Positions 22,473 through 52,909 of a stretch of DNA of 64,000 nt are shown piece after piece. The notes under the pieces are model-generated. The model searched no databases. It saw only the letters and a list, made by a program, of their open reading frames with translations, and was not told where the DNA came from. The translations under genes were made by a program, and so were the position numbers. Source of the DNA: an uncultured Bacteroidaceae bacterium (GTDB lineage Bacteria > Bacteroidota > Bacteroidia > Bacteroidales > Bacteroidaceae); the NCBI GenBank assembly GCA_905234745.1, contig CAJOJD010000003.1, positions 4,434 to 68,433 of the forward strand, given 5' to 3'. Numbering within the stretch: the stretch's first letter is position 1; every line of letters begins with the position of its first letter.

Positions 22473-22545
22473 GCGCGATTAGCTCAGTTGGTAGAGCAAT
22501 TGACTCTTAATCAATGGGTCCAGGGTTCGAATCCCTGATCGCGTA
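22473..22545 (+). tRNA. tRNA-Lys (anticodon CTT)
   Basis: I folded the cloverleaf by hand. It has a 7-bp acceptor stem (G1-U72 wobble), D arm GCTC/GAGC, anticodon stem ATTGA/TCAAT with loop CTCTTAA, T arm CAGGG-TTCGAAT-CCCTG and discriminator A. CCA is not encoded. Confidence 0.9.
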
Positions 22546-22578
22546 CAAAAATAGGAGACCAAACAGGGATTCGCGTTC

Positions 22579-38943: not shown

Positions 38944-40011
38944 CTAGAATTTCCACAATAAGCCGAGGGAGATGGGGAAGTCCCAGTAAAGCTGGCTGAC
39001 ATCCCCTTCCATGTGCTCAAAGATTCCGGCACCGCCGCTAAGGTCAAGTGCAAGATTCTTGCTCAGGAATATATCGTAGCCCAACTGACAGGTAAAGAAA
39101 TTCTCATGATGGTTACGTGTGGCGGGCTTTCCGTGGAACGACAGCGAGAAGGCTCCTATATCCAGCCCTGCGCCCAGGCTCCATGTAAATCCGGGCTCAA
39201 ACACGCCTTGCTCAAACAACGAACCGGTGGTGTAGCCCAGGTCGCCCATAAGTGATATTCCGCCGCGGTTACCCAGTCGGCATTTCATCTGCAGCACATC
39301 ACGTATGTTTCCTGTCTGGGTAAAAATCTGGAACTGAGGTGAAACTGAAAAGTACGGGAACCTGTCATCGGGAACATCCCAATTTTTGACAACGCCTATT
39401 ATCATTCCGGCTGATGCCACAGCAACTGCGGCCGCACCTATCAGCAGAGCGTCATCATCGACCTTTGTCAGATCCAGGTCCGAGTTCTTGGGACGGCTTG
39501 AACTGGAGTGGGTTTTATTGTAACGGCTCGAGTTAGAAGGTGTCCAGTTGTCATAATGACGGCCGTCATAGTAACGTGCACGGTGGGCCACGTCATACCA
39601 GAAGAGGTCGTGATAGAAGTCAAACAGGTCAACCAGCAGCATGGCCAGTACGGGATCATCGGGATCACTGGTGCTGTATTTCTTGCCTTCAGCATCGAGA
39701 GTGCTGTATACGATATTGTCAACAATCACCTCCTTTACAGGTTTGTCTACCGGCACGGGATCATGCAACTCGGCAACGGTATCGGGCATAAAGAGGTCAT
39801 ACATTACTGACTTGCTCTTATCCTTGTAAACAAAGTGGAACTGGGCGGTAACCTCGGCCGGACAGTTCTTGTACATGGTCAGATAGTCCAGTCCGTCATC
39901 GGCGGTCACGACCTCACCCCATACCATTATGTTTGATTTGTCTTTCTTCTTTCCGTAAACGGCTGTAAGCGGAAGCAAAACAGCCATCAGCATAATCATG
40001 AACTTCTTCAT
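38944..40011 (-). CDS. Hypothetical secreted/membrane protein with beta-barrel-like C-terminus
   Basis: 355 aa with a signal peptide, a Ser/Asn/Arg-rich low-complexity linker, a hydrophobic segment LLIGAAAVAVASAGMIIGVV, a Gly-rich amphipathic C-terminal part and a terminal WKF. Confidence 0.4.
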   Translation of the reverse strand: MKKFMIMLMAVLLPLTAVYGKKKDKSNIMVWGEVVTADDGLDYLTMYKNCPAEVTAQFHFVYKDKSKSVMYDLFMPDTVAELHDPVPVDKPVKEVIVDNIVYSTLDAEGKKYSTSDPDDPVLAMLLVDLFDFYHDLFWYDVAHRARYYDGRHYDNWTPSNSSRYNKTHSSSSRPKNSDLDLTKVDDDALLIGAAAVAVASAGMIIGVVKNWDVPDDRFPYFSVSPQFQIFTQTGNIRDVLQMKCRLGNRGGISLMGDLGYTTGSLFEQGVFEPGFTWSLGAGLDIGAFSLSFHGKPATRNHHENFFTCQLGYDIFLSKNLALDLSGGAGIFEHMEGDVSQLYWDFPISLGLLWKF

Positions 40012-40106: not shown

Positions 40107-41372
40107 TCAGTCATTCTGCTCTTCAGGCTCGGGCAGCTCCGTCTCAGAGCTCTCCGTGTCTGCATCCTGCAGTTGCGGGATTGGATTCTTGGAACTTTGC
40201 TTAGCCCCCAGTTTCTGCAGTTTGGCACAGGTCTGGATTATGCTCTGGCCACTGGGTTCCAGTTTCTTTCCGGCTGCCTCATATGCCTTGCCTGCACTGT
40301 CAAGAGCCTTGCCTATAGCCTTGTAGCGGTCCATAAACTGGCCCACACGGTCCATCATCTCATTGGCAAGTTCATATACCATCTCATGATTCTGGGCCTG
40401 GGCTATCTGGGTCCAGGTAAGATTGATGATACGCAAGGCGGCAAACAGCGTCTGCTCGTCGGCAATGTATACGTTTTTCTCCATTGCTTTGCGCCACAGA
40501 TCAGGCTGAGCCTTCATGGCGGTCCAGAGGGCTCCGGTGTTGGGCACGAACATGATGACGTAATCCATCTTGACCTTGGGAGGCTTAACATATGATGAGT
40601 AATCCTTTTTGACCAAATCTTTCACATGCTTCTGAATACTCTCCACATGCGCCTTGAGGTATTTCTGACGGTCGGCCTCGTTGTCGGCGTTCACATAATC
40701 CATAAATGCGGTCAGGGATACCTTTGAGTCAATTATGACATCGCGTTTCTGGTCCAGATGCAGGATTACGTCGGGACGCATGCGGCGGTCATTCTCGTTG
40801 TGTACCACATCACCCTCGGCATCGCGGATGGTTGACTGAATCTCATAATGCACGCCTTTGGTAAGACCCTGTGATTCCAACAGTTCATCCAGGATTATCT
40901 CACCCCACTCGCCCTGCACGCGGCCTGCATGACGGAATACGCGGGTAAGTTCATCAGCACTCTCCTTGGCGGCTGCGCTCTGGCGCATCATGTTCTCGGC
41001 CTGGGTCTTTATCTCACTGCTTATGGAGGTCTGCTTTATGGTATTCTCCTTCATGGCCTCCTTCATCTTGTCAATTGTCTCCTTGAGGGGGGTTACGATC
41101 TGTCCAAGACTGGTGTTGCTTGAGGCTGCGAACTCCTCCTGGCGGCGTTTGAGCATATCCTCGGTGGCCGATTTCATCTGAGCCGTAACCTTGGCTATAG
41201 TCTCGTCAAACTTGGCCTGCTGGGCGGCCAGCATGTCATCATATGCTTTCTGACGGGAATCAAGCAATTCCTGTGTATGTACCTGATAATCTTTCCCGGC
41301 AGTTCTTTTACCATACAGATAACCGGCAAGAAGTCCAATGACTATGCAAAGAAGAGATAATATATATACCAT
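40107..41372 (-). CDS. rmuC: DNA recombination protein RmuC
   Basis: It has an N-terminal TM segment, a long coiled coil and a nuclease-like core (MRPDVILHLDQKRDVIIDSKVSL). The start is set at 41372 (MVYILSLL...) because a -7 box lies inside the longer track ORF. Confidence 0.8.
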   Translation of the reverse strand: MVYILSLLCIVIGLLAGYLYGKRTAGKDYQVHTQELLDSRQKAYDDMLAAQQAKFDETIAKVTAQMKSATEDMLKRRQEEFAASSNTSLGQIVTPLKETIDKMKEAMKENTIKQTSISSEIKTQAENMMRQSAAAKESADELTRVFRHAGRVQGEWGEIILDELLESQGLTKGVHYEIQSTIRDAEGDVVHNENDRRMRPDVILHLDQKRDVIIDSKVSLTAFMDYVNADNEADRQKYLKAHVESIQKHVKDLVKKDYSSYVKPPKVKMDYVIMFVPNTGALWTAMKAQPDLWRKAMEKNVYIADEQTLFAALRIINLTWTQIAQAQNHEMVYELANEMMDRVGQFMDRYKAIGKALDSAGKAYEAAGKKLEPSGQSIIQTCAKLQKLGAKQSSKNPIPQLQDADTESSETELPEPEEQND

Positions 41373-41393
41373 ATCTTTAGTGTTAACATAACG

Positions 41394-41401
41394 CAAAAAT
41401 A
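41394..41401 (-). promoter_or_regulatory. Candidate -7 box (TATTTTTG on minus strand) for rmuC
   Basis: Plus-strand CAAAAATA lies 21 nt upstream of the ATG at 41372. Confidence 0.35.
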
Positions 41402-41414
41402 GCAATTTTATCCA

Positions 41415-41422
41415 TATATTTG
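41415..41422 (+). promoter_or_regulatory. Candidate -7 box TATATTTG for the 41.4-49.7 kb operon
   Basis: It ends 6 nt before the ATG at 41429 and is divergent from the rmuC promoter. Confidence 0.4.
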
Positions 41423-41428
41423 CAAGAT

Positions 41429-42394
41429 ATGATTCACTCAGCCTTATTCAGTATTAAAAAGGGCGCAGCGCTGGCACTTACAGCTTGTCTGTTATCTGTG
41501 GCACTGAATGCACAGGAAAAGATAATCTTCACTCCGCAATGGACGACTCAGGCTCAGTTTGCCGGTTATTATGTGGCACAGGAGATGGGCTTCTACTATA
41601 AAGCCGGAATAGATGTCGAAATCGTACATCCGTCCGTAACGCAATCGGCCATCAGCCGAATCCGCGATAACGAAAGTCAGGCCACCACGCTTCAGCTTGC
41701 GCAGGCCATGGAGATAATCGATGACGGCATACCACTTGTCAACATACTTCAGACATCCATGAACAATGCCATGGTAATAGTCTCACGCCGGGGAATGAAC
41801 CCGCTGAAGCAGGTTGGCGAAAAAGTGGGAATCTGGAATGCCGGATTCGGACAGATTGCCATAGGAATGAGTCTCAAGGAGAATCTTGACTACCGTTGGA
41901 CTCCTTTTGCCAACAACGTGAACCTGTTCATTTCGGGAGCCATAGATGCAACCCTTGCCATGAGTTACAACGAATACTACCAACTGGTTCAGACAGGCTT
42001 TGAACTCAATGAAGAATGTGTATACAGGTTCCGGGATCACGGATACAACATCCAGGAGGATGGCGTTTACATGACAAAGGAGTATTATGAAAGCCATAAG
42101 GATCAGGCACGGAAATTCGCAGAGGCCAGCCGTCAGGGCTGGGAATGGGCTATCCAGAACCCGGAAGAGACTCTTGAGATAGTGATGAGATACGTCCAGA
42201 AGGATCACATTGCCACTAACAGGGTGCTCCAGAAACTTATGCTTGATGAAGTCCTGAGTCTTCTCAAGGACAGAGAATCAGGACAGTATGAGTTCCGTCT
42301 GCGCCCCGATATGGTTGAACAGGCCAGCAACCTGATGCTTGAAATCGGAATGATTGAACGCCAGATCACTTACAATGAACTTCTTGATGAGTAA
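41429..42394 (+). CDS. Orphan periplasmic substrate-binding protein, NMT1/THI5 (SsuA/TauA-like) type
   Basis: A signal peptide is followed by KIIFTPQWTTQAQFAGYYVAQEMGFYYKAGIDVEIV, typical of NMT1-like binding proteins. No ABC permease or ATPase gene is nearby. Confidence 0.65.
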   Translation: MIHSALFSIKKGAALALTACLLSVALNAQEKIIFTPQWTTQAQFAGYYVAQEMGFYYKAGIDVEIVHPSVTQSAISRIRDNESQATTLQLAQAMEIIDDGIPLVNILQTSMNNAMVIVSRRGMNPLKQVGEKVGIWNAGFGQIAIGMSLKENLDYRWTPFANNVNLFISGAIDATLAMSYNEYYQLVQTGFELNEECVYRFRDHGYNIQEDGVYMTKEYYESHKDQARKFAEASRQGWEWAIQNPEETLEIVMRYVQKDHIATNRVLQKLMLDEVLSLLKDRESGQYEFRLRPDMVEQASNLMLEIGMIERQITYNELLDE

Positions 42395-42406
42395 AACGGT
42401 GCCGGT

Positions 42407-44767
42407 ATGAAAAAGAAAAAGAAAAGATCACTTTCTACAAAACTGAGTCTTTGGACAGTGCTGTTCGCCGGACTCATTTTCATAGCTGCAATGGGCGTCT
42501 TCTTTAACGAGTCCCGCATGGCCGTTCAGAGAATCGCCATCAGAAACGCCATGCTCATCCTTGACAATACGATACAGCATGTAGACAACATATTGACCAA
42601 GGTCAAGGTTGCCACCGACAACACAGACTGGCTCATTACCAGGCGTCTGGATGCGCCGGATTCCATGTTTGTCTACTCCCGCCGTATCCTGGAGAACAAT
42701 CCCGACCTTAACGGTTGCTCCATATCATTCGAGCCGTTCTATTTCAAGGAGAAAGGTCAGTATTTCTCGGCTTATTCCCTGAACACCGGCGATGGGATTG
42801 AGACCACTCAGGAGGGCAATGTCCATTACCAGTATTTCTCAATGGACTGGTATCAGTTGCCTAAACTGTTGGATCGGCCCTGTTGGACCGAGCCTTATGT
42901 GGATTTCAACCCGGAAAACATCACATCGCCCGAGATGATCATTTCCTACTGCAAACCCATCAAGGACCATCAGAACAACTTCATAGGTGCCATATCCGTT
43001 GACCTGTCCATTGAATGGCTCTCACAGACCATATCGGCTGTAAAGCCCTACCCTAACTCCTATACCATAATGATAGGAAAAGGCGGAACGTTCTTTGTAC
43101 ATCCCGATACCACAAAACTGTTCTACCAGACCATCTTCACCCAGACCCTGCTTGAGCCGGATACTGCAATAACTAATCTGGGACATGCCATGCAGGCCGG
43201 TGAGGAGGGCTATCGCAAGTTGGATCTCTACGGTGAGGAGTGTTATGTCCTTTACAAGCCCCTTGGTGACACAGGATGGAGTGTAGGTCTGGTATGTCCT
43301 ACAAGGGATATATTCAGCGGATACTATCACCTGGCTAACACCATAGCCGGAATAGTTATAGTAGGCCTGATGCTTATGCTGATGATATTCAGCGGTGTCA
43401 TATCCAAGCAGTTGGAACCGCTTGAGGAACTTGCATATCAGGCCGAAGCCATAGCATCCGGGCGTCTGGACGAGGAACTGTCCGATCTTCACCGGAATGA
43501 TGAGATAGGACAACTGAGTCTGTCTTTCCATCACATGCAGCAGTCACTCGTCCAACAGATTGAGGAACTAAAGATTGCAAATGAGCAGAAAGGACGCATT
43601 GAGGGTGAACTCAAGATTGCGCGCGACATTCAGATGGCTATGCTGCCCAAGATATTCCCGCCCTTCCCCGAACGCGATGACATAGACGTATTCGGCCAGT
43701 TGACCCCGGCCAAAGAGGTAGGTGGTGATCTTTTTGATTTCTACATCCGTGACGAGAAACTGTTCTTCTGCATAGGTGACGTATCTGGCAAAGGTATTCC
43801 CGCATCACTCTATATGGTTGTCACCAAAGCATTGTTCCGCACCATATCCATACACGAATCCTCACCGGAACGTATCGTTTACACCCTTAACGAGGTGATG
43901 TCAAGGGACAACGATTCCAATATGTTCGTGACCTTCTTTATGGGCGTGCTTGACTTGCCTACGGGGCGTCTGCACTACTGCAATGCCGGACACGACGCGC
44001 CTCTGCTGGTGGGTCACACCGGAGCGGGATTGCTGCCTGTCGATTCAAATCTGCCTATAGGCGTAATGGGCGGATGGAAGTTCACCAAGCAGGAAACGCT
44101 GGTGGATCCTGAGACTACGGTTTTCATGTACACCGACGGACTTAACGAAGCCGAGAATATCGGCCATCAGCAGTTTGAAATGACACGGGTAATGGAAACG
44201 GCACGCAGACTGCAGCAAGACGACAATTTCAAGCCTATGGTAATAGTGGATGAGATGATGGGAGCGGTCCGCGCGTTTGTAGGTGAAGCCGACCAGAGCG
44301 ATGACCTGACCATGCTGGCCATCCAATACACAAAGCACCAGGAGGATATAACATACCAGCGCTCGCTTACCCTCACCAATGACATAAAGCGCGTCCCCAG
44401 ACTCAACGCTTTCATAGATGAGGTTTGTGAGGCCAACGGATTCGACATGGCAACCATTATGCAGATCAACCTGGCTATTGAGGAGGCCGTGGTCAACATA
44501 ATGAACTACGCATACCCTAAAGGAACCAAAGGTGACATAACGATTGAGGCAAAAGCCAACGACACCCAATTGTCATTCATAATAAGTGACACCGGCAAGC
44601 CGTTCGACCCCACAGCCAAAGCCGAGGTGGATATCACTCTGAGCGCCGAGGACCGCGCCATAGGAGGTCTTGGCATACACCTGATACGCCAGATTATGGA
44701 CAACATAAACTACGAGCGCATTGACGGTCATAACATTCTAACCCTTATAAAGAAACTGAGCAAATGA
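42407..44767 (+). CDS. Membrane sensor: Cache-like extracytoplasmic domain, HAMP, PP2C/SpoIIE (RsbU-like) phosphatase, fused RsbW/SpoIIAB-like HATPase kinase domain
   Basis: 786 aa with two TM segments flanking ~270 aa. A HAMP-like linker is followed by SpoIIE motifs (GGDLFDF, IGDVSGKGIPASLYM, YTDGLNEA, QSDDLTMLAI). The C-terminal ~135 aa carry an N-box (EEAVVNIMNYAY), DTGKPFD and GGLGIHLIRQIMD. Confidence 0.75.
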   Translation: MKKKKKRSLSTKLSLWTVLFAGLIFIAAMGVFFNESRMAVQRIAIRNAMLILDNTIQHVDNILTKVKVATDNTDWLITRRLDAPDSMFVYSRRILENNPDLNGCSISFEPFYFKEKGQYFSAYSLNTGDGIETTQEGNVHYQYFSMDWYQLPKLLDRPCWTEPYVDFNPENITSPEMIISYCKPIKDHQNNFIGAISVDLSIEWLSQTISAVKPYPNSYTIMIGKGGTFFVHPDTTKLFYQTIFTQTLLEPDTAITNLGHAMQAGEEGYRKLDLYGEECYVLYKPLGDTGWSVGLVCPTRDIFSGYYHLANTIAGIVIVGLMLMLMIFSGVISKQLEPLEELAYQAEAIASGRLDEELSDLHRNDEIGQLSLSFHHMQQSLVQQIEELKIANEQKGRIEGELKIARDIQMAMLPKIFPPFPERDDIDVFGQLTPAKEVGGDLFDFYIRDEKLFFCIGDVSGKGIPASLYMVVTKALFRTISIHESSPERIVYTLNEVMSRDNDSNMFVTFFMGVLDLPTGRLHYCNAGHDAPLLVGHTGAGLLPVDSNLPIGVMGGWKFTKQETLVDPETTVFMYTDGLNEAENIGHQQFEMTRVMETARRLQQDDNFKPMVIVDEMMGAVRAFVGEADQSDDLTMLAIQYTKHQEDITYQRSLTLTNDIKRVPRLNAFIDEVCEANGFDMATIMQINLAIEEAVVNIMNYAYPKGTKGDITIEAKANDTQLSFIISDTGKPFDPTAKAEVDITLSAEDRAIGGLGIHLIRQIMDNINYERIDGHNILTLIKKLSK

Positions 44768-46263
44768 TACCGTTGTCAATCTTCAATATTGATATTTCAT
44801 CGGGCAACCTTATTCTGCTCGTCTCTTTCCTCATGTTCTTGGCCATACTCATGGCAAAAGTGGGTACCAAGTTCGGCGTCCCCACCATGCTGCTGTTCCT
44901 TATCCTGGGAATGCTGGCCGGCGAGGACGGTCTGGGAATAAGGATTGATGAGCTGCGTGTGGGTGAGTTCCTGGGACATCTGGCCATGACCATCATCCTG
45001 CTTACCGGCGGCCTTGAGACTTCTATGGCCGAGACAAAGCCTATAATAAAGAAAGGTATCTCTGTATCCACGTTGGGAGTATTCATAACCATTCTTGTAA
45101 CAGGACTGTTCATCTACTACGCTTTCGGGACAAGGATAGGCGGTGCAGGCGCTTCCATTATGGGATGTTTGCTGTTGGCCGCCGTCATGTCATCGACCGA
45201 TTCGGCATCGGTATTCTCTATATTGAGGACCAAGAGGCTTACGCTGCGTGAGAATCTGGGACCGCTTCTGGAACTTGAATCGGGAAGTAACGACCCCATG
45301 GCATATGTGCTTACCATACTTCTGGTCAGCATACTGGAATCAGTACACGGCTCAACTGGAGAAATCCACACCTGGAGCATCATTCTGTCCGGTGTATGGA
45401 TCCTTATCAAACAGATTATTATAGGTTTTGTCGTAGCATTGGCTTTGGGATACGGAGCTCGCTGGCTGATTACCAGGATTCACCTGCAGTCCAGTCCACT
45501 CTATGCAATCCTTATACTCAGCATCGCATTGTTTGCCAACGGTGCGGCTTCATTCATAGGCGGCAACGGACTTCTTGCCCTTTATGTCTGCGCCATAATA
45601 ATAGGCAACACCAAGGAGATGCCGGCAAGAAAAGAGGTACTTATCTTCTTCGAGGTAATAACCTGGCTCTCGCAGCTCATGATGTTCCTGTTGTTGGGAC
45701 TGCTGGCCAAGCCGTCACAGATGCATACCGTTCTGGTTCCAGCCATCCTGATAGGACTGTTCCTGATGCTGGTGGCACGTCCGGCAGGTATCATGCTCAG
45801 CCTGCTGCCATTCAGAGGACTCTCTTTCAGGGCCAAGTTGCTCACATCATGGGTAGGACTCAAGGGTGCCGGTCCGATACTCTTTGCCCTTTACACCGTG
45901 ATTGAAGGCGTTGACGGATCAAGTGAGATATTCAACATAGTATTCACCATAACCCTCATGTCACTGCTTTTGCAGGGTATGACCATCTCTCCCATGGCCA
46001 AGCTGCTGAACATGAGTATTGACGATGACCCCGAGGTCGAGACATTCGGCATGGAGGTACCCGAGGAGATGGGAATGCTCCGTGACCATATCGTATCACA
46101 AGAGGATCTGGAGAGCGGCGAGACACTGCGCGACCTGCATCTGCCCCACGGCATTCGCGTGATGATGGTTCGTCGCGGCGACAAATATCTTGTCCCTCAT
46201 GGAAGCATGAAACTTACGGTCGGGGACAAGCTGGTGATTATTATGGGCGACACCGATGATTAA
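44764..46263 (+). CDS. K+/H+ (CPA1, NhaP2-like) antiporter with C-terminal TrkA-C/RCK_C domain
   Basis: 499 aa with about 12 TM segments and the SGSNDP motif. The C-terminal soluble domain reads LRDLHLPHGIRVMMVRRGDKYLVPHGSMKLTVGDKLVIIMG. Its ATGA start overlaps the upstream stop. Confidence 0.75.
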   Translation: MIPLSIFNIDISSGNLILLVSFLMFLAILMAKVGTKFGVPTMLLFLILGMLAGEDGLGIRIDELRVGEFLGHLAMTIILLTGGLETSMAETKPIIKKGISVSTLGVFITILVTGLFIYYAFGTRIGGAGASIMGCLLLAAVMSSTDSASVFSILRTKRLTLRENLGPLLELESGSNDPMAYVLTILLVSILESVHGSTGEIHTWSIILSGVWILIKQIIIGFVVALALGYGARWLITRIHLQSSPLYAILILSIALFANGAASFIGGNGLLALYVCAIIIGNTKEMPARKEVLIFFEVITWLSQLMMFLLLGLLAKPSQMHTVLVPAILIGLFLMLVARPAGIMLSLLPFRGLSFRAKLLTSWVGLKGAGPILFALYTVIEGVDGSSEIFNIVFTITLMSLLLQGMTISPMAKLLNMSIDDDPEVETFGMEVPEEMGMLRDHIVSQEDLESGETLRDLHLPHGIRVMMVRRGDKYLVPHGSMKLTVGDKLVIIMGDTDD

Positions 46264-46287
46264 TGAATCAAACAAGAATAAACTATT

Positions 46288-46593
46288 ATGGAAGTAAAAA
46301 TCAACAACCAAGACGGAATTACGACCGCACAGCTTATCGGTCGTCTGGACACACCCGCATCACAGGAGATAAGCGGTGATTTTGATAACCTGACACAGTA
46401 TGCCGCAGGAACCGTAATCCTGGATTGCACCGAGCTTGAGTACATATCAAGTTCCGGACTGCGTCTGTTCCTTTCACTGCGCAAGGCTGCTGCTTCAAAG
46501 GGAGGCAAGATCATCGTTAAGGCCATCAACAAAGACATCCGTTCAGTCTTTATGATGACCGGTTTCCTCAATCTGTTTGAGATTCAGGACTAA
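46288..46593 (+). CDS. STAS-domain anti-sigma-factor-antagonist-like protein (RsbV/SpoIIAA family)
   Basis: 101 aa. DCTELEYISSSGLRLFL contains the conserved phosphorylatable Ser context. Confidence 0.8.
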   Translation: MEVKINNQDGITTAQLIGRLDTPASQEISGDFDNLTQYAAGTVILDCTELEYISSSGLRLFLSLRKAAASKGGKIIVKAINKDIRSVFMMTGFLNLFEIQD

Positions 46594-46604
46594 AAAAACG
46601 AGCC

Positions 46605-47669
46605 ATGAAGAAGGCTAGGCAACTGGACCCTCACTGTGAGGCCATCCTTCAGGAATATCAGGATAACCTGCCCCGCTTCAGGGAAGTAGAGCAGGAGGTT
46701 AAGGAAAAGCTCAGACAGACATTGGCCGATGCCGGTCTGCTTGTGGCTTCTATTGAATCACGTGTCAAGGCATATGATTCGCTTGCCGGTAAGCTGGAGT
46801 TGAAAGGTCACAAGTACAACAGTCTGGCTGACCTGACCGACATTCTGGGACTCAGAGTCATTACCTTCTACATAGACGATGTCGATAAGGTGGCATCGGC
46901 CGTTGAGAGACTCTTTGAGATTGACTGGGAGAATACCGTCGACAAGCGCAAGATCCACGAGATAGATAGTTTCGGTTATCTGTCACTGCACTACATCTGT
47001 TCAGTGCCGGGTTTCCCCTACCGTTTTGAGATACAGATGCGCACCCTATTGCAGCACGCATGGGCAAACATGGACCATGACACCGGTTACAAATCGGGTG
47101 TGGAGATACCCAAACGCTATATGCGCAATATGAGCCGTCTGGCCGGTATGCTGGAACTGGTGGATGACGAGTTCAGCAAGATACGCATAGAGCTGACCGA
47201 TTACCGTCGCCGTGTCCAGTCACTGGTTCGCTCAGGCAACCTGGATGAGGTGCCCATTGACGGAGACACTTTCCGCAGTTATCTGGAGCTGGATCCGTTC
47301 GGCCAACTCAACAAGCGCATAGCCGCCATGAACCAGGCCGAGATACAGGAAGTACCGCTCATGCCCTATCTGGCTGTATTCAAAGGTATCGGACTCAAGA
47401 CGTTGGGCGACATATCGAATGTCATCAAGGAGTATTCGGAGGGAGCCTATCAGATAGCATGCTATCAGATAGGACTGACCGATCTGGATATCATCTCATC
47501 GTCCATCGGCCCTCAGGACCTGTGCATTGCGTTCATACTCAAGAACGGAGGCGGCAAAGCCGGCATCAAGTATATGTTTGACCTTCTGAACGGAGAGTCC
47601 GAGAGTAATGATATGATTGCCGAGATGCTGTTGGAACAGTCCAAGGACCTGCCTTTCATGAACAAATAA
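46605..47669 (+). CDS. RelA/SpoT-domain nucleotide pyrophosphokinase (small alarmone synthetase-like) with uncharacterised C-terminal domain
   Basis: 354 aa. Synthetase motifs are intact: SRVKAYDSLAGKL, DILGLRVITFYIDD, GYLSLHY and EIQMRTLLQHAWANMDHDTGYK. The ~150-aa C-terminus has no motif I recognise. Confidence 0.75.
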   Translation: MKKARQLDPHCEAILQEYQDNLPRFREVEQEVKEKLRQTLADAGLLVASIESRVKAYDSLAGKLELKGHKYNSLADLTDILGLRVITFYIDDVDKVASAVERLFEIDWENTVDKRKIHEIDSFGYLSLHYICSVPGFPYRFEIQMRTLLQHAWANMDHDTGYKSGVEIPKRYMRNMSRLAGMLELVDDEFSKIRIELTDYRRRVQSLVRSGNLDEVPIDGDTFRSYLELDPFGQLNKRIAAMNQAEIQEVPLMPYLAVFKGIGLKTLGDISNVIKEYSEGAYQIACYQIGLTDLDIISSSIGPQDLCIAFILKNGGGKAGIKYMFDLLNGESESNDMIAEMLLEQSKDLPFMNK

Positions 47670-47679
47670 ACCTTTTATA

Positions 47680-48246
47680 ATGGCAAACAAACCGCTTGAC
47701 ACCACCCTACTTGACCGCGCCATAATGTTTGCGGTCAAGGCCCACGCCGGCACCGAACGCAGGGGCAAAGGTTTTCCTTATATTGTACACCCCATGGAGG
47801 CGGTCGAGATTGTAGCGACCATAACACCCGACCAGGAACTTCTGGCTGCCGCCGCACTGCATGACACCGTCGAGGATACCGACGTCACCATTGACGATAT
47901 CCGCCGGGAATTCGGTGATCGCATAGCATCACTCGTGCAGATTGAGAGCGTAGGTGATGATGAGGGCACATGGCACGAACGCAAGAAAAAGGCCATAGAC
48001 CTAATCGCAGGTGCCCCACGTGATGCCAAGATTGTAGCCATGGGCGACAAACTGTCCAATATGCGTGCCATTGCACGTGACTATGCCGTACAGGGCGATG
48101 CTCTTTGGAAGCTGTTCCATGCCAATAATCCCAAGGACCACGAATGGCATTACCGCGGACTGGCCGATGCCCTGCGCGACCTCCAGGACACATTCGCGTT
48201 CCAGGAATTCGAGATGCTCATCAATCAGGTTTTCGGCAAGAAATAA
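47680..48246 (+). CDS. HD-domain small alarmone hydrolase (SpoT/Mesh1-like)
   Basis: 188 aa with HAGTERRGKGFPYIVHPMEV..., AALHDTVEDT and GDKLSNMR. These match the RSH hydrolase-domain pattern. Confidence 0.75.
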   Translation: MANKPLDTTLLDRAIMFAVKAHAGTERRGKGFPYIVHPMEAVEIVATITPDQELLAAAALHDTVEDTDVTIDDIRREFGDRIASLVQIESVGDDEGTWHERKKKAIDLIAGAPRDAKIVAMGDKLSNMRAIARDYAVQGDALWKLFHANNPKDHEWHYRGLADALRDLQDTFAFQEFEMLINQVFGKK

Positions 48247-49076
48247 TGGATGCCATAAAGATTTCACTCGACGACTACATACTGTTTGGCGGCGGTGCCA
48301 ACGGTGAGAGTTATGACCATAAGACCGATCCGGACCTTATGCTCAAACTCTATATGCCCGGCAAGACACAACAGCCTCTTGACGAGATGCTGATGGCCCG
48401 CAAGGTCTATGACTTGGGCATCCCCACCCCTGAGCCGGGTGATTATGTGGTGACTGAAGACGGCCGTTACGGCATCCGTTTCCGCCGCATCAAAGGAAAG
48501 AAATCTTATTCACGCGCCACAGGCGATAATCCGGAACTCGTAGGCCAATACGCCCATGAGTTTGCCCAGATGTGTCTTAAGCTCCACTCAGTCCATGTGG
48601 ATACCACTCAGTTTGAGAGCGTAAAAGAGCGTTATTTCCGCCTGCTCACGGAGAACCCGTTCTTCAGCACCGCCCAGAAAGACCGCATCGGCAAGTTTAT
48701 AGCCGATGCCCCCGATACCGATACCGCCATTCACGGTGACCTGCAGTACAGCAATGCCATCTTTGCGGGATCGGAACGTTATTTCATAGACCTGGGAGAT
48801 TTCTGCTACGGATACAACATGTTTGATCTGGGAATGGTATATCTGTGCTGCTGTCTCAGCGAGGAAAGTTTCATCAGGGAGACTTTCCATATGCCCAAAT
48901 CCCTGGCCATACAGTTCTGGCAGAATTTTGCGCCCGCCTACTTCGGATCAGACCGTCCGTTGAAGGACATAGAAGAAGAGATTCGCCCATACGCCGGACT
49001 CAAGACTCTAATAGTGGAACGGGACACAAAACGACCTATGCCGGAGTTACGGGCAGGAATGGATTTTTTGTTATAG
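48246..49076 (+). CDS. APH/choline-kinase-family phosphotransferase
   Basis: 276 aa from the ATG at 48246, overlapping the upstream stop by 1 nt (TAATG). It has the Brenner-type motif IHGDLQYSN and FIDLGDF. Confidence 0.65.
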   Translation: MDAIKISLDDYILFGGGANGESYDHKTDPDLMLKLYMPGKTQQPLDEMLMARKVYDLGIPTPEPGDYVVTEDGRYGIRFRRIKGKKSYSRATGDNPELVGQYAHEFAQMCLKLHSVHVDTTQFESVKERYFRLLTENPFFSTAQKDRIGKFIADAPDTDTAIHGDLQYSNAIFAGSERYFIDLGDFCYGYNMFDLGMVYLCCCLSEESFIRETFHMPKSLAIQFWQNFAPAYFGSDRPLKDIEEEIRPYAGLKTLIVERDTKRPMPELRAGMDFLL

Positions 49077-49099
49077 GACTATTAAAAACATAAAACACA

Positions 49100-49651
49100 A
49101 TGAAACGAATTCTTTATTGCATTGCATTCATGTTCATCTCCGTGATGATGTCAGCACAGGATATTCCTGCAGGTATGCGCATGGAGGTAGCAGAACTGGA
49201 GTTGGACAACAACGAGTACTCAATCTTCCAGTACAAGGATCCTGACGGCACTACCGCTTATTACCTGAGTCTGGGTAACGTTTTCCACATACTGGGATTC
49301 TTCCGCGATGATATCACAGACATGGCTATCGATCATTTTGACGAGGCATGCCTTGTTATCGGCAACACCCAGGAGGAGGCAATCGCATTCCTGGACGGAC
49401 TGCTTGAGCTCCTCAACCAGAAGATCGGTACTACGAAAGAATTCAAGTACAGGAAGACCAACGGAGCCGAAAGACTGACTGACACAGACGTATCGACATG
49501 CACCGTAACCAAACGGTTCCTGCAGAGCAAAAGGCTGAGTTTCCAGTTTGTAAGCGGAAACCGCACGGTCGAGACTGACCTCAAGAAATCAACGATCAAG
49601 AATCTGCGTCTGAACGTCAGGATCAACAAGAAACTGCATCCCGACAAGTAA
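49100..49651 (+). CDS. Hypothetical secreted protein
   Basis: 183 aa with signal peptide MKRILYCIAFMFISVMMSAQ. I recognise no motifs. Confidence 0.45.
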   Translation: MKRILYCIAFMFISVMMSAQDIPAGMRMEVAELELDNNEYSIFQYKDPDGTTAYYLSLGNVFHILGFFRDDITDMAIDHFDEACLVIGNTQEEAIAFLDGLLELLNQKIGTTKEFKYRKTNGAERLTDTDVSTCTVTKRFLQSKRLSFQFVSGNRTVETDLKKSTIKNLRLNVRINKKLHPDK

Positions 49652-49653
49652 CC

Positions 49654-50892
49654 TTACTCGAAGCGGATTGACTTGGAGGGAACGATGCGGGAAATCACGG
49701 CACTTGGGATGAGCATCATAAGCATGGAGAGAATGAACATCACTACGTTCAGAATTATGAGCCATCCCAGTCCCACCTGCATTGGCACGCTGTCCAGATA
49801 GTAATTGGCCGGATCAAGCGGGAAGATATGGAACCACTGCTGTGCCAGGCATATCACTATTCCCACAGCATTTCCGATAGCCATTCCCTTGAGTATTATA
49901 TATGAAGCCAGCCTGAGGAATATCTTCCTTACCGTCTTGTTTGATGCACCCATTGACTTTAGCATGCCAATGGTTGCAGTACGTTCAAATATTATTATGA
50001 GCAATCCGGAGATCATGGTGAATCCGGCTATTCCCATCATAAGCGCCAGTATTATCCAGACATTCAGATCCAACACTTCAAGCCAGGCAAACAAGCCCGA
50101 GTGTGTATCATAAAGCGTACGTACCAGAAAATCTTCGCCGGTCTGCTTCTCGATCGCATTCATCACATCACGTACCTGACCGTAACCTTCATCCACCTTG
50201 CTTACACTGGTCAGACCTATCTCAAGACCGCTGTACTCATAGGGTTCCCAGTCGTTAAGACGTTGCAGCAATTTGATCTCGGTTATACCGAACAACCTGT
50301 CATACTCCAGGAAACCGGTTTCATAAATACCGGTAACGGTAAGACGCCTGATCCTGACCTGATCCTGCATGAAATAGACATCGGCTTTGGTGCCAACATC
50401 CAGCCCAAGCATATCGGCTATATTACGGGACAGTATTACCCAGTTGTTGCCAAGTGAGTCCTTGGGCTCGGGAAAGCCTCCCCTCAACATATAACGGTTC
50501 AGGAAAGTGCGGTCATAATCTGCGCCAATGCCCTTGAGCATAAAACCATGGAAAGCCTCACTGGTACGGATAATGCAGGGCTTGTTCACATAGGGCTGGA
50601 CATGCTCTACTACACTCTGGGACAGAAGCGCATCCATTGTAGTGTCCATGCATACAACCGGATCCTCAATCACTCCAAGACCCACACGGGAATTGGTTAC
50701 GGTGATATGCTGGGAGAATCCCATCACCTTGTCACGTATCTGATTCTTGAAACCGCGGGTAATGGCAATGGTAAGTATCATAACAGCCAGACCCACCGCA
50801 ATGCCGGCTGTGGCAATGATGATAGCCGGACGCGAGCCGCCTTTTACGCCCTCATCCCTACCGTACAACCGTCTGGCCAGAAACTTCTCCAT
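49654..50892 (-). CDS. FtsX/LolC/LolE-family ABC transporter permease
   Basis: 412 aa from MEKFLARRL.... It has TM1, a large periplasmic domain and three C-terminal TM segments (FtsX fold). The track start at 50934 adds 14 unlikely residues. Confidence 0.8.
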   Translation of the reverse strand: MEKFLARRLYGRDEGVKGGSRPAIIIATAGIAVGLAVMILTIAITRGFKNQIRDKVMGFSQHITVTNSRVGLGVIEDPVVCMDTTMDALLSQSVVEHVQPYVNKPCIIRTSEAFHGFMLKGIGADYDRTFLNRYMLRGGFPEPKDSLGNNWVILSRNIADMLGLDVGTKADVYFMQDQVRIRRLTVTGIYETGFLEYDRLFGITEIKLLQRLNDWEPYEYSGLEIGLTSVSKVDEGYGQVRDVMNAIEKQTGEDFLVRTLYDTHSGLFAWLEVLDLNVWIILALMMGIAGFTMISGLLIIIFERTATIGMLKSMGASNKTVRKIFLRLASYIILKGMAIGNAVGIVICLAQQWFHIFPLDPANYYLDSVPMQVGLGWLIILNVVMFILSMLMMLIPSAVISRIVPSKSIRFE

Positions 50893-51060
50893 AACTGAAC
50901 GCGAAGATAGTTCTTTTGATGTTCCCAGACACATGATAAAACACCAAAAATGGCAAATGTCACTATTATTTCTATTTTGATACTGCTATTATTCAAGCTG
51001 AAACCCGCCCGCACAGAGTGCTTCATAAATTGCAGACCATTAAACCACACTAACAGCCTT

Positions 51061-51213
51061 ATGAGCAAAAAACGCAGAAAAAATTATGAGACACCCGTGA
51101 CACAGGTAATCGAGGTGAAAATGCAGGGCGTACTCGCAGCCAGCGGAGATCCGCTGGATCCGCTAAGTGATCCGTTATTCATTATTCCTTTTGGAGGAGG
51201 TGAAGATTGGTAA
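51061..51213 (+). CDS. Small ORF (50 aa), basic N-terminus and acidic Pro-rich C-terminus with DPL repeats
   Basis: MSKKRRKNYETPVTQVIEVKMQGVLAASGDPLDPLSDPLFIIPFGGGEDW. It ends 22 nt before the next gene. Whether it is really coding is unproven. Confidence 0.35.
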   Translation: MSKKRRKNYETPVTQVIEVKMQGVLAASGDPLDPLSDPLFIIPFGGGEDW

Positions 51214-51235: not shown

Positions 51236-52909
51236 ATGAAAAAGGTATTTTTTATTCTTTTCGCACTTGCAGCGCTGACAGCCTGCGACACTGAAGGACT
51301 GGGTCTATTTCAGAACGACACGAGTCAGGATAATACAGCTAACAGGATAAAGGGGGATTTTGGAGGACTCAAACTTGATCTCACCATAACATTAGGTGAC
51401 GCAACAGCCGGCACCAAGGCTACTGTTAAGAATGATTTTGCTGTCAATGACGTGGTATTTGTAACCATAACCGGATACCATGCCAGCCACCACTATCTGG
51501 AATTGAAGAAAACAGGGGCAGACACATGGACAGCTACTCCTAAAAACGGATTCGACATAGAACTGTATAACACCACCGGAACAATGACCGCCGTCTATTT
51601 CCCATACGGCAGTTCATTGAATCTCAAGACTTCAACGGGAACTGTCGTATTTGAAGACCGCGAAGATCATCAATATAACTACGGAGGTCTGTTCTATCAG
51701 GCAGAGAACGCCGCCTATGAAGTCAATGGAGGAGTGTTGTGCGGTACACTGAACCTGGTGGCTCCCAATCTTTCTGCCGGTGGCCATGATGACGATAAAT
51801 TCATCCATTTTGACATAACAGGTTATACTGATGGTCATGATTACAAACTATATCAGGATTATGTGACACCTATCAGGTTTATGGGTATAAATGAAATGGG
51901 CATTGTATCCTGGGAGACTGGCAGCGCAGGTGCCGCGCTCCAAGGATATAAGGATAGTGGCAACGACATAATCTCTTTCTCAGGATTGCTTAATTCCAGC
52001 GCAGTAGGCAACGAGTTGGATTATCAGTTCTCAATCATTGACTGGACTGACTCAATAGCCTATACCCGTGATGCAGGCAACAAGACCCTGAGTACTTCAA
52101 AATACATAGGTATAGGTGATATCTCCACCAGCACATGGAATGCAATGGAGTTTGTTGATATGGGTACATCTGGAAGCAATCTTTATCCTATTTATTGGGC
52201 AAAGAGAAACGTTGGTGCCACTGCCGATAACGGTAGGGCAAGCTACGGCAAATATTTTGCATGGGGAGATGTAAACGGTTATTATATCGAAGAAGACCAA
52301 TGGCAACCATTTCCTGACACATATCCCGAATATATTTTTGATGTCTGCACTACCAACAGTTTCAATACACAACCTGTATGCGATGTTGACGGAGACGGAA
52401 ACCTTTTGCCGGCATATGACGGTGCAAAAGCCACTATGAAAGGTTTCTGGCGTATGCCCACCGAATACGATTATATGATATTGACATCAAACGCTTCAAA
52501 AACATATTCCGCAGGAGGAGCAACCCTGACCAGTACCATAGACGGGTATGAAGGCAGGCACTTTTTCTTACCCGCAGCTGGTACCTTGAAGTACAATGCA
52601 GAGTTATGGGCTACTTACAGTCGTTGCATGCTTTCGCGTACTGGAAGTGTATTAAGTGACCCTGAACTTGATCCTTCTGATCCCGCTAATTATATAGATA
52701 CTTTCAATGGCATGTATTGGACCTCGACCAAGGCAGAAATAATATTTCAAGGAAATCCTGTAGATAGGCCTGGTCATATATCACTGGACACCTACCTTGT
52801 AGAGCCTGATCCGGTCTATAGAGGTCGCATTAGCTCTGGTTACAGCTCTCTTGAAAGTGAGTTCACTGTGGGCAGACCGATTCGTGCCGTATTCCAGGTA
52901 CCGGAATAA
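51236..52909 (+). CDS. Lipoprotein: fimbrillin-like N-terminal half plus FISUMP/DUF1566-like C-terminal domain
   Basis: Lipoprotein signal ALAALTAC. The C-terminal half has the pattern WAKRNVGA...YGKYFAWGD...FWRMPTEYDY...FFLPAAG...MYWTST, characteristic of the Fib_succ_major/DUF1566-type domains. Confidence 0.55.
   Translation: MKKVFFILFALAALTACDTEGLGLFQNDTSQDNTANRIKGDFGGLKLDLTITLGDATAGTKATVKNDFAVNDVVFVTITGYHASHHYLELKKTGADTWTATPKNGFDIELYNTTGTMTAVYFPYGSSLNLKTSTGTVVFEDREDHQYNYGGLFYQAENAAYEVNGGVLCGTLNLVAPNLSAGGHDDDKFIHFDITGYTDGHDYKLYQDYVTPIRFMGINEMGIVSWETGSAGAALQGYKDSGNDIISFSGLLNSSAVGNELDYQFSIIDWTDSIAYTRDAGNKTLSTSKYIGIGDISTSTWNAMEFVDMGTSGSNLYPIYWAKRNVGATADNGRASYGKYFAWGDVNGYYIEEDQWQPFPDTYPEYIFDVCTTNSFNTQPVCDVDGDGNLLPAYDGAKATMKGFWRMPTEYDYMILTSNASKTYSAGGATLTSTIDGYEGRHFFLPAAGTLKYNAELWATYSRCMLSRTGSVLSDPELDPSDPANYIDTFNGMYWTSTKAEIIFQGNPVDRPGHISLDTYLVEPDPVYRGRISSGYSSLESEFTVGRPIRAVFQVPE

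Follow-up and report, generated by a model that had tools for sequence, protein, structure and literature searches.

What do the partner switches of Bacteroidota act on? To our knowledge, members of this phylum encode many PP2C phosphatases, RsbW-like kinases and STAS proteins but no sigma factors of the SigB or SigF type, so that the targets of their switches are largely unknown. The question arises in concrete form from a block of eight genes in a 64,000-nucleotide stretch of DNA from an uncultured Bacteroidaceae bacterium (assembly GCA_905234745.1, contig CAJOJD010000003.1, positions 4,434 to 68,433 of the forward strand); the whole of this stretch is called the window here, and positions are counted from its first letter. 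The block combines the parts of such a switch with a small alarmone synthetase (SAS), a small alarmone hydrolase (SAH), a K+/H+ antiporter and three further genes. An earlier reading of the bare sequence (the sequence-only reading) had proposed that the switch, having no sigma factor beside it, acts on the transporter, on the nucleotide enzymes or on both. From the gene content and domain architecture of this locus and its relatives, we consider it probable that the module is a partner switch whose dedicated output is the SAS and not a sigma factor.

The switch is recognizable from two of the eight proteins. The second gene encodes a membrane sensor in which a PP2C/SpoIIE phosphatase domain and an RsbW-like serine kinase domain of the HATPase_c_2 family follow one another in a single chain (Table 1), and its translation carries the PP2C motifs GDVSGKG, DGL and DDLT together with the kinase N and G boxes EEAVVN, DTGKPF and GGLGI. 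The NCBIfam RsbW models match sensor residues 672-778 with E values of 1e-12 to 1e-15, and the RsbW and SpoIIAB models taken together give 1e-10 to 1e-15, all of them under the equivalog cut-offs; the kinase domain is therefore described as RsbW-like and not as an RsbW orthologue. The fourth gene encodes a single-domain STAS protein, which also passes the TIGR00377 model of anti-sigma-factor antagonists (62.5 bits, cut-off 53.45). Its predicted phospho-acceptor, Ser55, presumably corresponds to Ser58 of SpoIIAA, judging from our own alignment to the Bacillus subtilis motif DSSGLG, and the surrounding positions Y52, S54, S55, G57, L58 and R59 are invariant in 75 orthologues. The possibility that the HATPase-like or the STAS region would miss its profile threshold can be set aside, since both pass, with 89.2 and 59.5 bits; altogether, seven of the eight open reading frames (ORFs) score above curated profile cut-offs for the domains that the sequence-only reading had named. 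That reading was also right in that the operon contains a PP2C, RsbW-like kinase and STAS module without a sigma factor. Searched with single queries, the 64-kb window yielded no ECF-type (extracytoplasmic function) sigma factor, no second STAS protein, no second kinase and no second PP2C.

The fifth gene encodes the SAS. Its N-terminal pyrophosphokinase domain (about residues 1-205) resembles RelQ and RelP, with sequence matches to these enzymes in the PDB at 1e-13. In an AlphaFold 2 model with a pLDDT (predicted local distance difference test) value of 93, the closest folds are again RelQ and RelP (E 3e-9, target TM score about 0.8, probability 1.00); CapRel is among the fold matches as well, with a weaker score (E 1e-6, TM score 0.37, root-mean-square deviation about 15 Å). 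Across 30 family members, residues R53, K55, D79, R84, E142, Q144, H158, Y162 and K163 do not vary. The protein is nevertheless not a member of the RelQ/RelP (YjbM/YwaC) family: it has 354 residues and an extra C-terminal domain, whereas those enzymes are single-domain proteins of ~210-230 residues, and it reaches 57.3 bits against the YjbM equivalog model NF053588, whose cut-off is 320. The all-helical C-terminal domain, which is specific to this family, gave no Pfam match and, as a separate model (pLDDT 96), no PDB fold match (best E 2.1). It was considered as a sigma-domain mimic and as a mimic of the CapRel antitoxin domain, and neither idea found support. The same domain is found in stand-alone family members that have no switch genes, among them the SAS homologues P0143 (locus L093) and P0164 (L087), which sit alone beside TIR/LRR or HEPN genes; part of the SAS family may thus work in defence-type contexts.

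The association of this enzyme with the switch recurs widely. The SAS was aligned with 29 family representatives, and the alignment was used to fetch 80 species-level loci, the best 80 of at least 530 matches, with SAS proteins 48-71% identical; loci carry L numbers here. The SAS family as a whole is larger, with about 918 clusters (at 50% identity) below E 1e-30. All six-frame, stop-to-stop ORFs of a locus were scored against the window proteins with single-sequence phmmer, a procedure that may have overlooked divergent partners. Most of the loci belong to Paludibacteraceae, Prevotella/Xylanibacter and other Bacteroidales; a few are from metagenome-assembled genomes (MAGs) labelled Lachnospiraceae, Christensenellaceae, Mogibacterium or Subdoligranulum (Firmicutes), and single loci carry the labels Sphaerochaetaceae and Acholeplasmatales. 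MAG taxonomy labels are those deposited. On the SAS strand and within 6 kb of the SAS gene, a STAS gene is present in 67 of the 80 loci (directly adjacent in 54) and an RsbW-like kinase in 64, followed by PP2C (47), SAH (42) and the APH-like kinase encoded by the seventh gene (34). In 41 loci the kinase and PP2C form one protein; in 26 the kinase is free-standing. Up to 3 kb from the SAS, STAS genes number 14.9 per 100 kb, and at 3-10 kb in the same loci 1.4 per 100 kb. An ECF sigma factor near the cassette of locus L043 is not a recurrent neighbour across loci. The conserved core of the module is SAS, STAS and RsbW-like kinase, with PP2C, SAH and the APH-like kinase as frequent companions. 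The link between switch and alarmone enzymes that the sequence-only reading had suspected is borne out by this strong co-occurrence across species and by domain fusions, and the wiring is well supported as a genomic association. Its eight-gene operon does not hold as a unit: only 2 of the 80 loci have the NMT1 gene within 6 kb of the SAS, 3 have the CPA1 antiporter and 1 has the eighth gene.

The arrangement of these genes is fluid. In L089 (SAS 97% identical) the order NMT1, sensor-PP2C-kinase, antiporter, STAS, SAS, SAH and APH is the same as here except that the eighth gene is missing, which answers the concern that the order might be kept in no relative at all. In L090 (SAS 94% identical) the APH gene leads, followed by NMT1, sensor-PP2C-kinase, antiporter, STAS, SAS and SAH, and the set lies at a different chromosomal site; in L001-3 (89%) the order is SAS, sensor-PP2C-kinase, antiporter, STAS, SAH, APH. 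A gene set that is kept while its order and location change points to a functional unit rather than to inherited synteny. At the other extreme, cultured strains of Xylanibacter ruminicola (Ga6B6 and D31d) and Prevotella (sp. P6B1 and MA2016) carry a minimal cassette of RsbW, STAS and SAS among housekeeping genes, and a SAS of only 37% identity is followed by a STAS gene, a 141-residue PP2C and a 138-residue RsbW-like kinase.

Parts of the switch are, moreover, found in one chain with nucleotide enzymes. A fusion of HATPase_c_2 and SAS (521 residues) forms three clusters that are 81-82% identical to one another, and two contigs show it without interruption at the DNA level. The SAS is also found fused to the HD_4 domain of the SAH, the SAH is fused to APH in 7 of the 80 loci, STAS is fused to APH in two Prevotella species (L068 and L069), and HD_4, STAS and APH are joined in a Lachnospiraceae MAG (L038). 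The observed fusions couple switch parts with nucleotide enzymes, and none includes a transporter.

How such a module might work can be outlined as follows. An extracellular ligand, sensed by the dCache domain with the NMT1 protein, would shift the balance between the phosphatase and kinase activities of the sensor; this balance would set the phosphorylation state of STAS Ser55, and that state would decide if the SAS is kept inactive or set free. For the last step, two versions may be envisaged. In one, the kinase domain would sequester the SAS as RsbW does SigB, and unphosphorylated STAS would displace the SAS; the RsbW-STAS-SAS triad and the kinase-SAS fusion favour this version. In the other, STAS would bind the SAS directly, much as HsbA and SypA bind targets that are not sigma factors; it is favoured by the analogy with HsbR and SypE, by the adjacency of STAS and SAS in 54 of the 80 loci and by the fusions of STAS with enzymes. 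The SAS would then make a guanosine-type alarmone, (p)ppGpp or pGpp, and the SAH would reset the signal. The APH-like kinase, sometimes fused to STAS, could be a further enzyme under control of the switch, acting on the same nucleotide pool or on a protein of the module, and the K+/H+ antiporter could, more speculatively, be an effector added in this lineage and gated by the nucleotide through its RCK_C domain or by STAS.

Several observations weigh against the SAS as the dedicated output. The whole case is built on sequence. The 80 loci form one clade of the SAS family, and members outside it, at 31% and 41% identity beside HEPN or TIR genes and at 35% among metabolic genes, have no switch genes near them, so that the linkage characterizes a clade rather than the SAS family at large; the contigs of two further members (35% and 44%) are too short for their neighbourhoods to be judged. 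Even among the 80 loci, 11 have neither STAS nor kinase within 6 kb of the SAS: a few of these are contig ends or have the switch genes farther off, and in the rest the SAS is alone or accompanied by SAH or APH only. The C-terminal domain of the SAS, being common to stand-alone members, cannot be a switch-specific docking site, and the acceptor of the enzyme (GDP/GTP, ATP or tRNA) cannot be told from its sequence. Finally, the fusions pull both ways, kinase with SAS towards sequestration by the kinase and STAS with enzyme towards direct binding by STAS, and no STAS gene lies close by in the clade of the kinase-SAS fusion.

The nature of the alarmone can be approached from the SAH, which is predicted to remove the SAS product. 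Its nearest solved relatives are Lmo0812 (2e-21), the bacterial SAHs 7qoc and 7qoe, and MESH1, while the (p)ppApp-specific Aph1 (7smg) matches it only partially (1e-8 over 79 residues). Hydrolases of the Aph1 type carry a signature of D24, R96, D116, R119, K133 and Y134 (PMC10083569). At the first signature position, the one examined, the base-recognition site of the window protein reads ERRGKG and has an Arg pair as in (p)ppGpp hydrolases, in place of the D24-K25 of Aph1. Together with the relatives of the SAH, this Arg pair weakly indicates a guanosine-type alarmone. The APH-like kinase, which has the eukaryotic-protein-kinase fold, scores 227.5 bits on TIGR02172, just under the cut-off of 228.2, and its catalytic residues K34, E47, H163, D165, N170 and D182 are invariant. 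A single-sequence search of the PDB gave no matches, and a profile search gave marginal ones only, to the small-molecule kinases APH(3') (5e-4) and MTR kinase and to the minimal protein kinases HopBF1 and NleH. Other genes recur near the module in related loci, including a Y_phosphatase3 protein (22 loci, e.g. L023:13269-14066) and a cytidylate-kinase-like P-loop protein (9 loci, e.g. L026:12417-13049), which hint at nucleotide or phosphate chemistry of the module beyond the synthesis and hydrolysis of one alarmone, as well as a 267-residue protein without a known family (about 10 loci). In 13 Prevotella loci, a GerE/LuxR-type protein (200-212 residues, with a C-terminal helix-turn-helix domain) is encoded directly 3' of the SAS, its gene overlapping the SAS stop codon (L037:11083-11685, L030:11061-11699); it is not present in the window and may be a transcriptional output of the Prevotella modules.

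The presence of a SAS beside a SAH also brings to mind a different function, in which the SAS would be a toxic effector of the toxSAS type serving growth arrest, toxin-antitoxin activity or anti-phage defence, the SAH would be a type IV antitoxin as in FaRel/ATfaRel, the switch would serve as a safety catch, and the C-terminal domain would be an autoinhibitory or sensory domain like that of CapRel. The SAS and SAH genes are indeed adjacent, with a 10-nt junction, as in FaRel/ATfaRel; the two-domain layout and length of the SAS resemble those of CapRel, which is one of its fold matches; distant family members lie beside TIR/LRR and HEPN genes; and the N-terminal domain has a weak PADLOC match (2e-15) to the defence candidate PDC-S33, whose profile of 349 positions is close to the 354 residues of the SAS. 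Yet in both fold and sequence the enzyme is nearer to RelQ/RelP (E 3e-9) than to CapRel (1e-6), and its C-terminal domain matches neither CapRel nor any other fold in the PDB. An antitoxin would also be missing often, as 38 of the 80 loci have no SAH within 6 kb, and a sensor built on a periplasmic dCache domain and a binding protein suits chemicals outside the cell, not phage proteins. The surroundings speak against it as well: no mobile-element or prophage genes were found near the operon, the window has an even G+C content throughout, and conserved housekeeping genes flank the block. As to the pairing of toxin and antitoxin expected of a toxSAS system, the SAH is adjacent to the SAS in the window and lies within 6 kb of it in 42 of the 80 loci, and in no case do the two make up a self-contained two-gene cassette carried by a mobile element. 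PADLOC gave no match for the other seven operon proteins, and assignment to an anti-phage system by that program was rejected, the lone PDC-S33 match being insufficient. A regulated toxic SAS therefore appears unlikely to us.

The transporter of the module varies by lineage. The window encodes an NhaP2/CvrA-type antiporter of the CPA1 family with a C-terminal TrkA_C domain (Pfam scores 157 bits for Na_H_Exchanger, cut-off 26.2, and 37.8 for TrkA_C, cut-off 27). It lies within the module in L001-3, L089 and L090 and in only 3 of the 80 species loci, and is therefore a lineage-specific accessory and not a conserved output. In Prevotella, its positional counterpart is a CitMHS permease of an unrelated family with two TrkA_C domains, located between the RsbW-like kinase (or PP2C-kinase fusion) and STAS (L030:7539-9332, L029, L031, L032, L075, L080 and L081). 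A fused ABC ATPase-permease is the third family to recur.

It might accordingly be asked whether the switch acts on a membrane transporter, with STAS as a detachable subunit comparable to MlaB in MlaFE or to the STAS domains of SulP proteins, and with SAS and SAH as co-regulated passengers or as enzymes acting downstream of ion flux. Transporters from the three unrelated families are embedded in the module in 17 of the 80 loci and flank it in 5 more (22 of 80), they lie between kinase and STAS both in the window and in Prevotella, and the STAS protein has a weak match to MlaB (4e-4). Against this, the 58 loci without such a transporter still keep STAS and kinase beside the SAS, the minimal cassettes RsbW-STAS-SAS and SAS-STAS-PP2C-RsbW have no transporter, and every fusion joins switch parts to nucleotide enzymes. 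The proposal of the sequence-only reading that the transporter is an output thus fares unevenly: the particular antiporter is not conserved, although transporters of three families do recur. A transporter as the actual target seems to us slightly less likely still than a toxic SAS. That the genes are merely juxtaposed and the switch controls a sigma factor or another target encoded elsewhere is very improbable: Bacteroidetes operons often mix functions, and the NMT1, antiporter and eighth genes are indeed variable, but the co-occurrence extends over 80 species with shuffled order and survives relocation to another chromosomal site (L090), with a ten-fold local enrichment of STAS and five kinds of fusion.

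The input side of the window module appears to be exchangeable. The product of the first gene, an NMT1/THI5-type binding protein, bears a signal peptide as well as a lipobox-like LTAC, and its neighbour senses through dCache and HAMP, no Response_reg (REC) domain having been matched in it. The NMT1 protein had been called an orphan, a description that does not hold, as it travels with the particular dCache-HAMP sensor it precedes: NMT1 genes stand directly 5' of related dCache-PP2C genes in L043, L054, L075, L089 and L090, and L001-L003 have none. When the sensor region of the window (42407-43600) was compared with L001:11075-12100 and L043:17510-19435, the PP2C and kinase parts proved 77% identical to L001 and the dCache part only 27%; the window dCache is 60% identical to that of an NMT1-linked dCache-PP2C protein of Xylanibacter ruminicola, which has no kinase domain. 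NMT1 and its dCache-HAMP sensor thus move jointly, in the manner of a portable input cassette. The NMT1 protein is an accessory, lineage-specific part of the module and probably serves as a ligand-binding co-sensor for the adjoining dCache sensor.

The eight plus-strand ORFs extend from 41420 or 41429 to 49651, and the junctions of 12, -4, 24, 11, 10, -1 and 23 nt given by the sequence-only reading were reproduced exactly. The position 41415 that it gave as the start does not begin an ORF but a predicted promoter motif, TAtaTTTG, which matches TAnnTTTG, the Bacteroides -7 consensus. Since this motif ends 6 nt before the ATG at 41429, the 5' leader of the first gene may be very short or absent, making it leaderless or nearly so. 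The likely ATG starts of the divergent RmuC gene (41372, minus strand) and of the first gene (41429, plus strand) are ~57 nt apart. A sigma-70 promoter scan of the region gave nothing above shuffled expectation, and the 12 terminator-like sites of the region, none of which falls in any of the junctions, compare with 8.2 +/- 3.1 expected from shuffled sequence; these counts are thus uninformative either way on operon structure. A single transcript for the eight genes is plausible from their layout. Rfam and ARAGORN searches gave a single match in the 64-kb window, a tRNA-Lys (anticodon CTT) on the plus strand at 22473-22546 (22473-22545 in Rfam), and neither a riboswitch nor any other known RNA close to the operon. 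The operon is surrounded by housekeeping genes, with RmuC, an FtsX-type permease and a decarboxylase as its neighbours, and three flanking ORFs, at 38944-40011 (minus), 50950-51213 (plus) and 51236-52909 (plus), have counterparts of like size and position in L001-L003.

Table 1. Features of the operon and its flanks in the window (positions in nucleotides from the first letter of the window; bit scores with profile cut-offs in brackets).
Feature	Position	Strand	Basis or description
Flanking ORF, 355 residues	38944-40011	-	no Pfam match
RmuC gene, upstream boundary of the block	40107-41405	-	
Bacteroidetes-type -7 promoter motif TAtaTTTG (predicted)	41415-41422	+	read from sequence, just 5' of ORF 1
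ORF 1	41420 (TTG start) or 41429 (ATG start)-42394	+	
NMT1/THI5-type periplasmic binding protein (ORF 1)	41429-42394	+	Pfam NMT1 97.8 bits (20.5)
ORF 2, membrane sensor, bifunctional regulator	42407-44767	+	order: transmembrane segment, dCache, transmembrane segment, HAMP, PP2C/SpoIIE, HATPase_c_2
Periplasmic dCache domain of sensor	about 42524-43288	+	MCP-like_PDC_1 76.7 bits (27); dCache_1 61.1 (45)
HAMP domain of sensor	43406-43552	+	43.8 bits (25)
PP2C/SpoIIE phosphatase domain of sensor	43751-44329	+	154.8 bits (25)
RsbW-like HATPase_c_2 Ser kinase domain of sensor	44375-44752	+	89.2 bits (27.4)
ORF 3, NhaP2/CvrA-type K+/H+ antiporter (CPA1), C-terminal TrkA_C (RCK_C)	44764-46263	+	NF003716 481.5 bits (355)
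ORF 4, single-domain STAS protein (RsbV/SpoIIAA-like)	46288-46593	+	STAS 59.5 bits (22.6)
Predicted phospho-acceptor Ser55 of STAS, motif YISSSGLR	46450-46452 (codon)	+	
ORF 5, SAS, 354 residues	46605-47669	+	RelA_SpoT (PF04607) 68.4 bits (27)
SAS C-terminal all-helical, family-specific domain, residues 208-354	47226-47666	+	
ORF 6, SAH, HD_4 only	47680-48246	+	HD_4 61.9 bits (27.2)
ORF 7, APH-like kinase (eukaryotic-protein-kinase fold), TIGR02172 family	48246-49076	+	APH 48.9 bits (23.2)
ORF 8, eighth gene, 183 residues, signal-peptide-like N-terminus	49100-49651	+	no Pfam, NCBIfam or PADLOC match
FtsX/MacB-type permease gene, downstream boundary of the block	49654-50934	-	
Flanking ORF, 87 residues	50950-51213	+	
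Flanking ORF, 557 residues	51236-52909	+	no Pfam match

The eighth gene, though co-oriented with the others, probably lies outside the module: it is missing in L089, and a homologue was seen only in L005. In L001-3, a Peptidase_M15 gene occupies its place. Such a gene, for a D-Ala-D-Ala dipeptidase-like protein, follows the module in the differently arranged lineages of L001 (16587-17339) and L037 (12441-13226).

Beyond the target of the switch, a wider scheme may be sketched, which we regard as possible but doubtful: an extracellular chemical would act through a swappable dCache and binding-protein input on a serine-phosphorylation switch and thereby on the alarmone made by the SAS, a route that would need neither the ribosome nor amino-acid starvation; the alarmone or STAS would gate transporters with RCK_C domains; and the arrangement would be widespread in gut and rumen anaerobes. 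The post-translational control of small alarmone synthetases, beyond allostery and transcription, is an open question, and a module that is conserved, shuffled and occasionally fused offers a concrete and testable answer both to it and to the question of switch targets raised above. Its presence in dozens of gut and rumen species suggests an undescribed route from the sensing of the environment to a stress nucleotide. If this is true, a ligand outside the cell could, by way of a modular sensor, set off signalling by the (p)ppGpp family in anaerobes that dominate rumen and gut. Under the wider scheme, the module would also provide the first RelA/SpoT-family enzyme to replace the sigma factor of a partner switch, and it would couple alarmone signalling directly to ion homeostasis. 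The impression of the sequence-only reading that such wiring had not been described agrees with a full-text literature search, including papers on toxSAS and Aph1 and a STAS review, which found no description of a SAS linked to or under the control of STAS, RsbW or PP2C (subscription-only papers and supplementary neighbourhood figures were outside its reach).

Among known systems, the module shares with the RsbU/RsbV/RsbW-SigB and SpoIIE/SpoIIAA/SpoIIAB-SigF switches of Bacillus a PP2C phosphatase, a serine kinase of the GHKL type (HATPase_c_2) and a single-domain phospho-Ser STAS protein. It differs from them in having no sigma factor, the SAS taking the place of the sigma gene in the RsbW-STAS-SAS cassettes of Prevotella and Xylanibacter, and in that the window kinase forms one chain with the phosphatase, tethered to the membrane behind dCache and HAMP. 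On the enzyme side, RelQ and RelP of Firmicutes have the catalytic domains closest to that of the window SAS in sequence and fold, with the catalytic Asp/Glu and basic residues conserved; unlike them, the window SAS has ~150 extra C-terminal residues that form a helical domain without a solved relative. The control of RelQ and RelP is transcriptional and allosteric (pppGpp, RNA), and a partner switch is not known to take part in it. The toxSAS enzymes (FaRel/ATfaRel) and CapRel offer the likeness of a SAS beside a SAH and of a two-domain SAS of ~350 residues, but the window enzyme is nearer to RelQ/RelP, its locus is not on a mobile element, and the SAH is missing from nearly half of the loci.

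Partner switches with outputs other than sigma factors are known from HsbR-HsbA, SypE-SypA, SiaABCD and the recent HenR system of Anabaena. In HsbR-HsbA of Pseudomonas and SypE-SypA of Vibrio fischeri, as in the window, a fused phosphatase and RsbW-like kinase acts on a STAS protein with non-sigma targets; the window likewise encodes PP2C and HATPase_c_2 in one ORF (42407-44767), with STAS two genes downstream. HsbR and SypE, however, receive their input through a REC domain fed by a phosphorelay, whereas that of the window is a periplasmic dCache-HAMP, and their outputs are FlgM, a diguanylate cyclase or biofilm polysaccharide and include no RelA/SpoT-family enzyme. The targets of HsbA reportedly include a diguanylate cyclase. 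In SiaABCD of Pseudomonas aeruginosa, a PP2C and a kinase set the phosphorylation of a small partner protein; by binding a nucleotide second-messenger synthetase, this partner activates it (PMC8457831). The module proposed here would follow the same logic, although the window PP2C is not a SiaA member, its 62 bits on the SiaA model falling short of the cut-off of 700. The SiaB kinase and its SiaC partner are said to belong to other protein families, and the messenger of that system to be cyclic di-GMP. If the SAS is indeed the output of the module described here, enzymes of the RelA/SpoT family would join the diguanylate cyclases as synthetases under partner-switch control.

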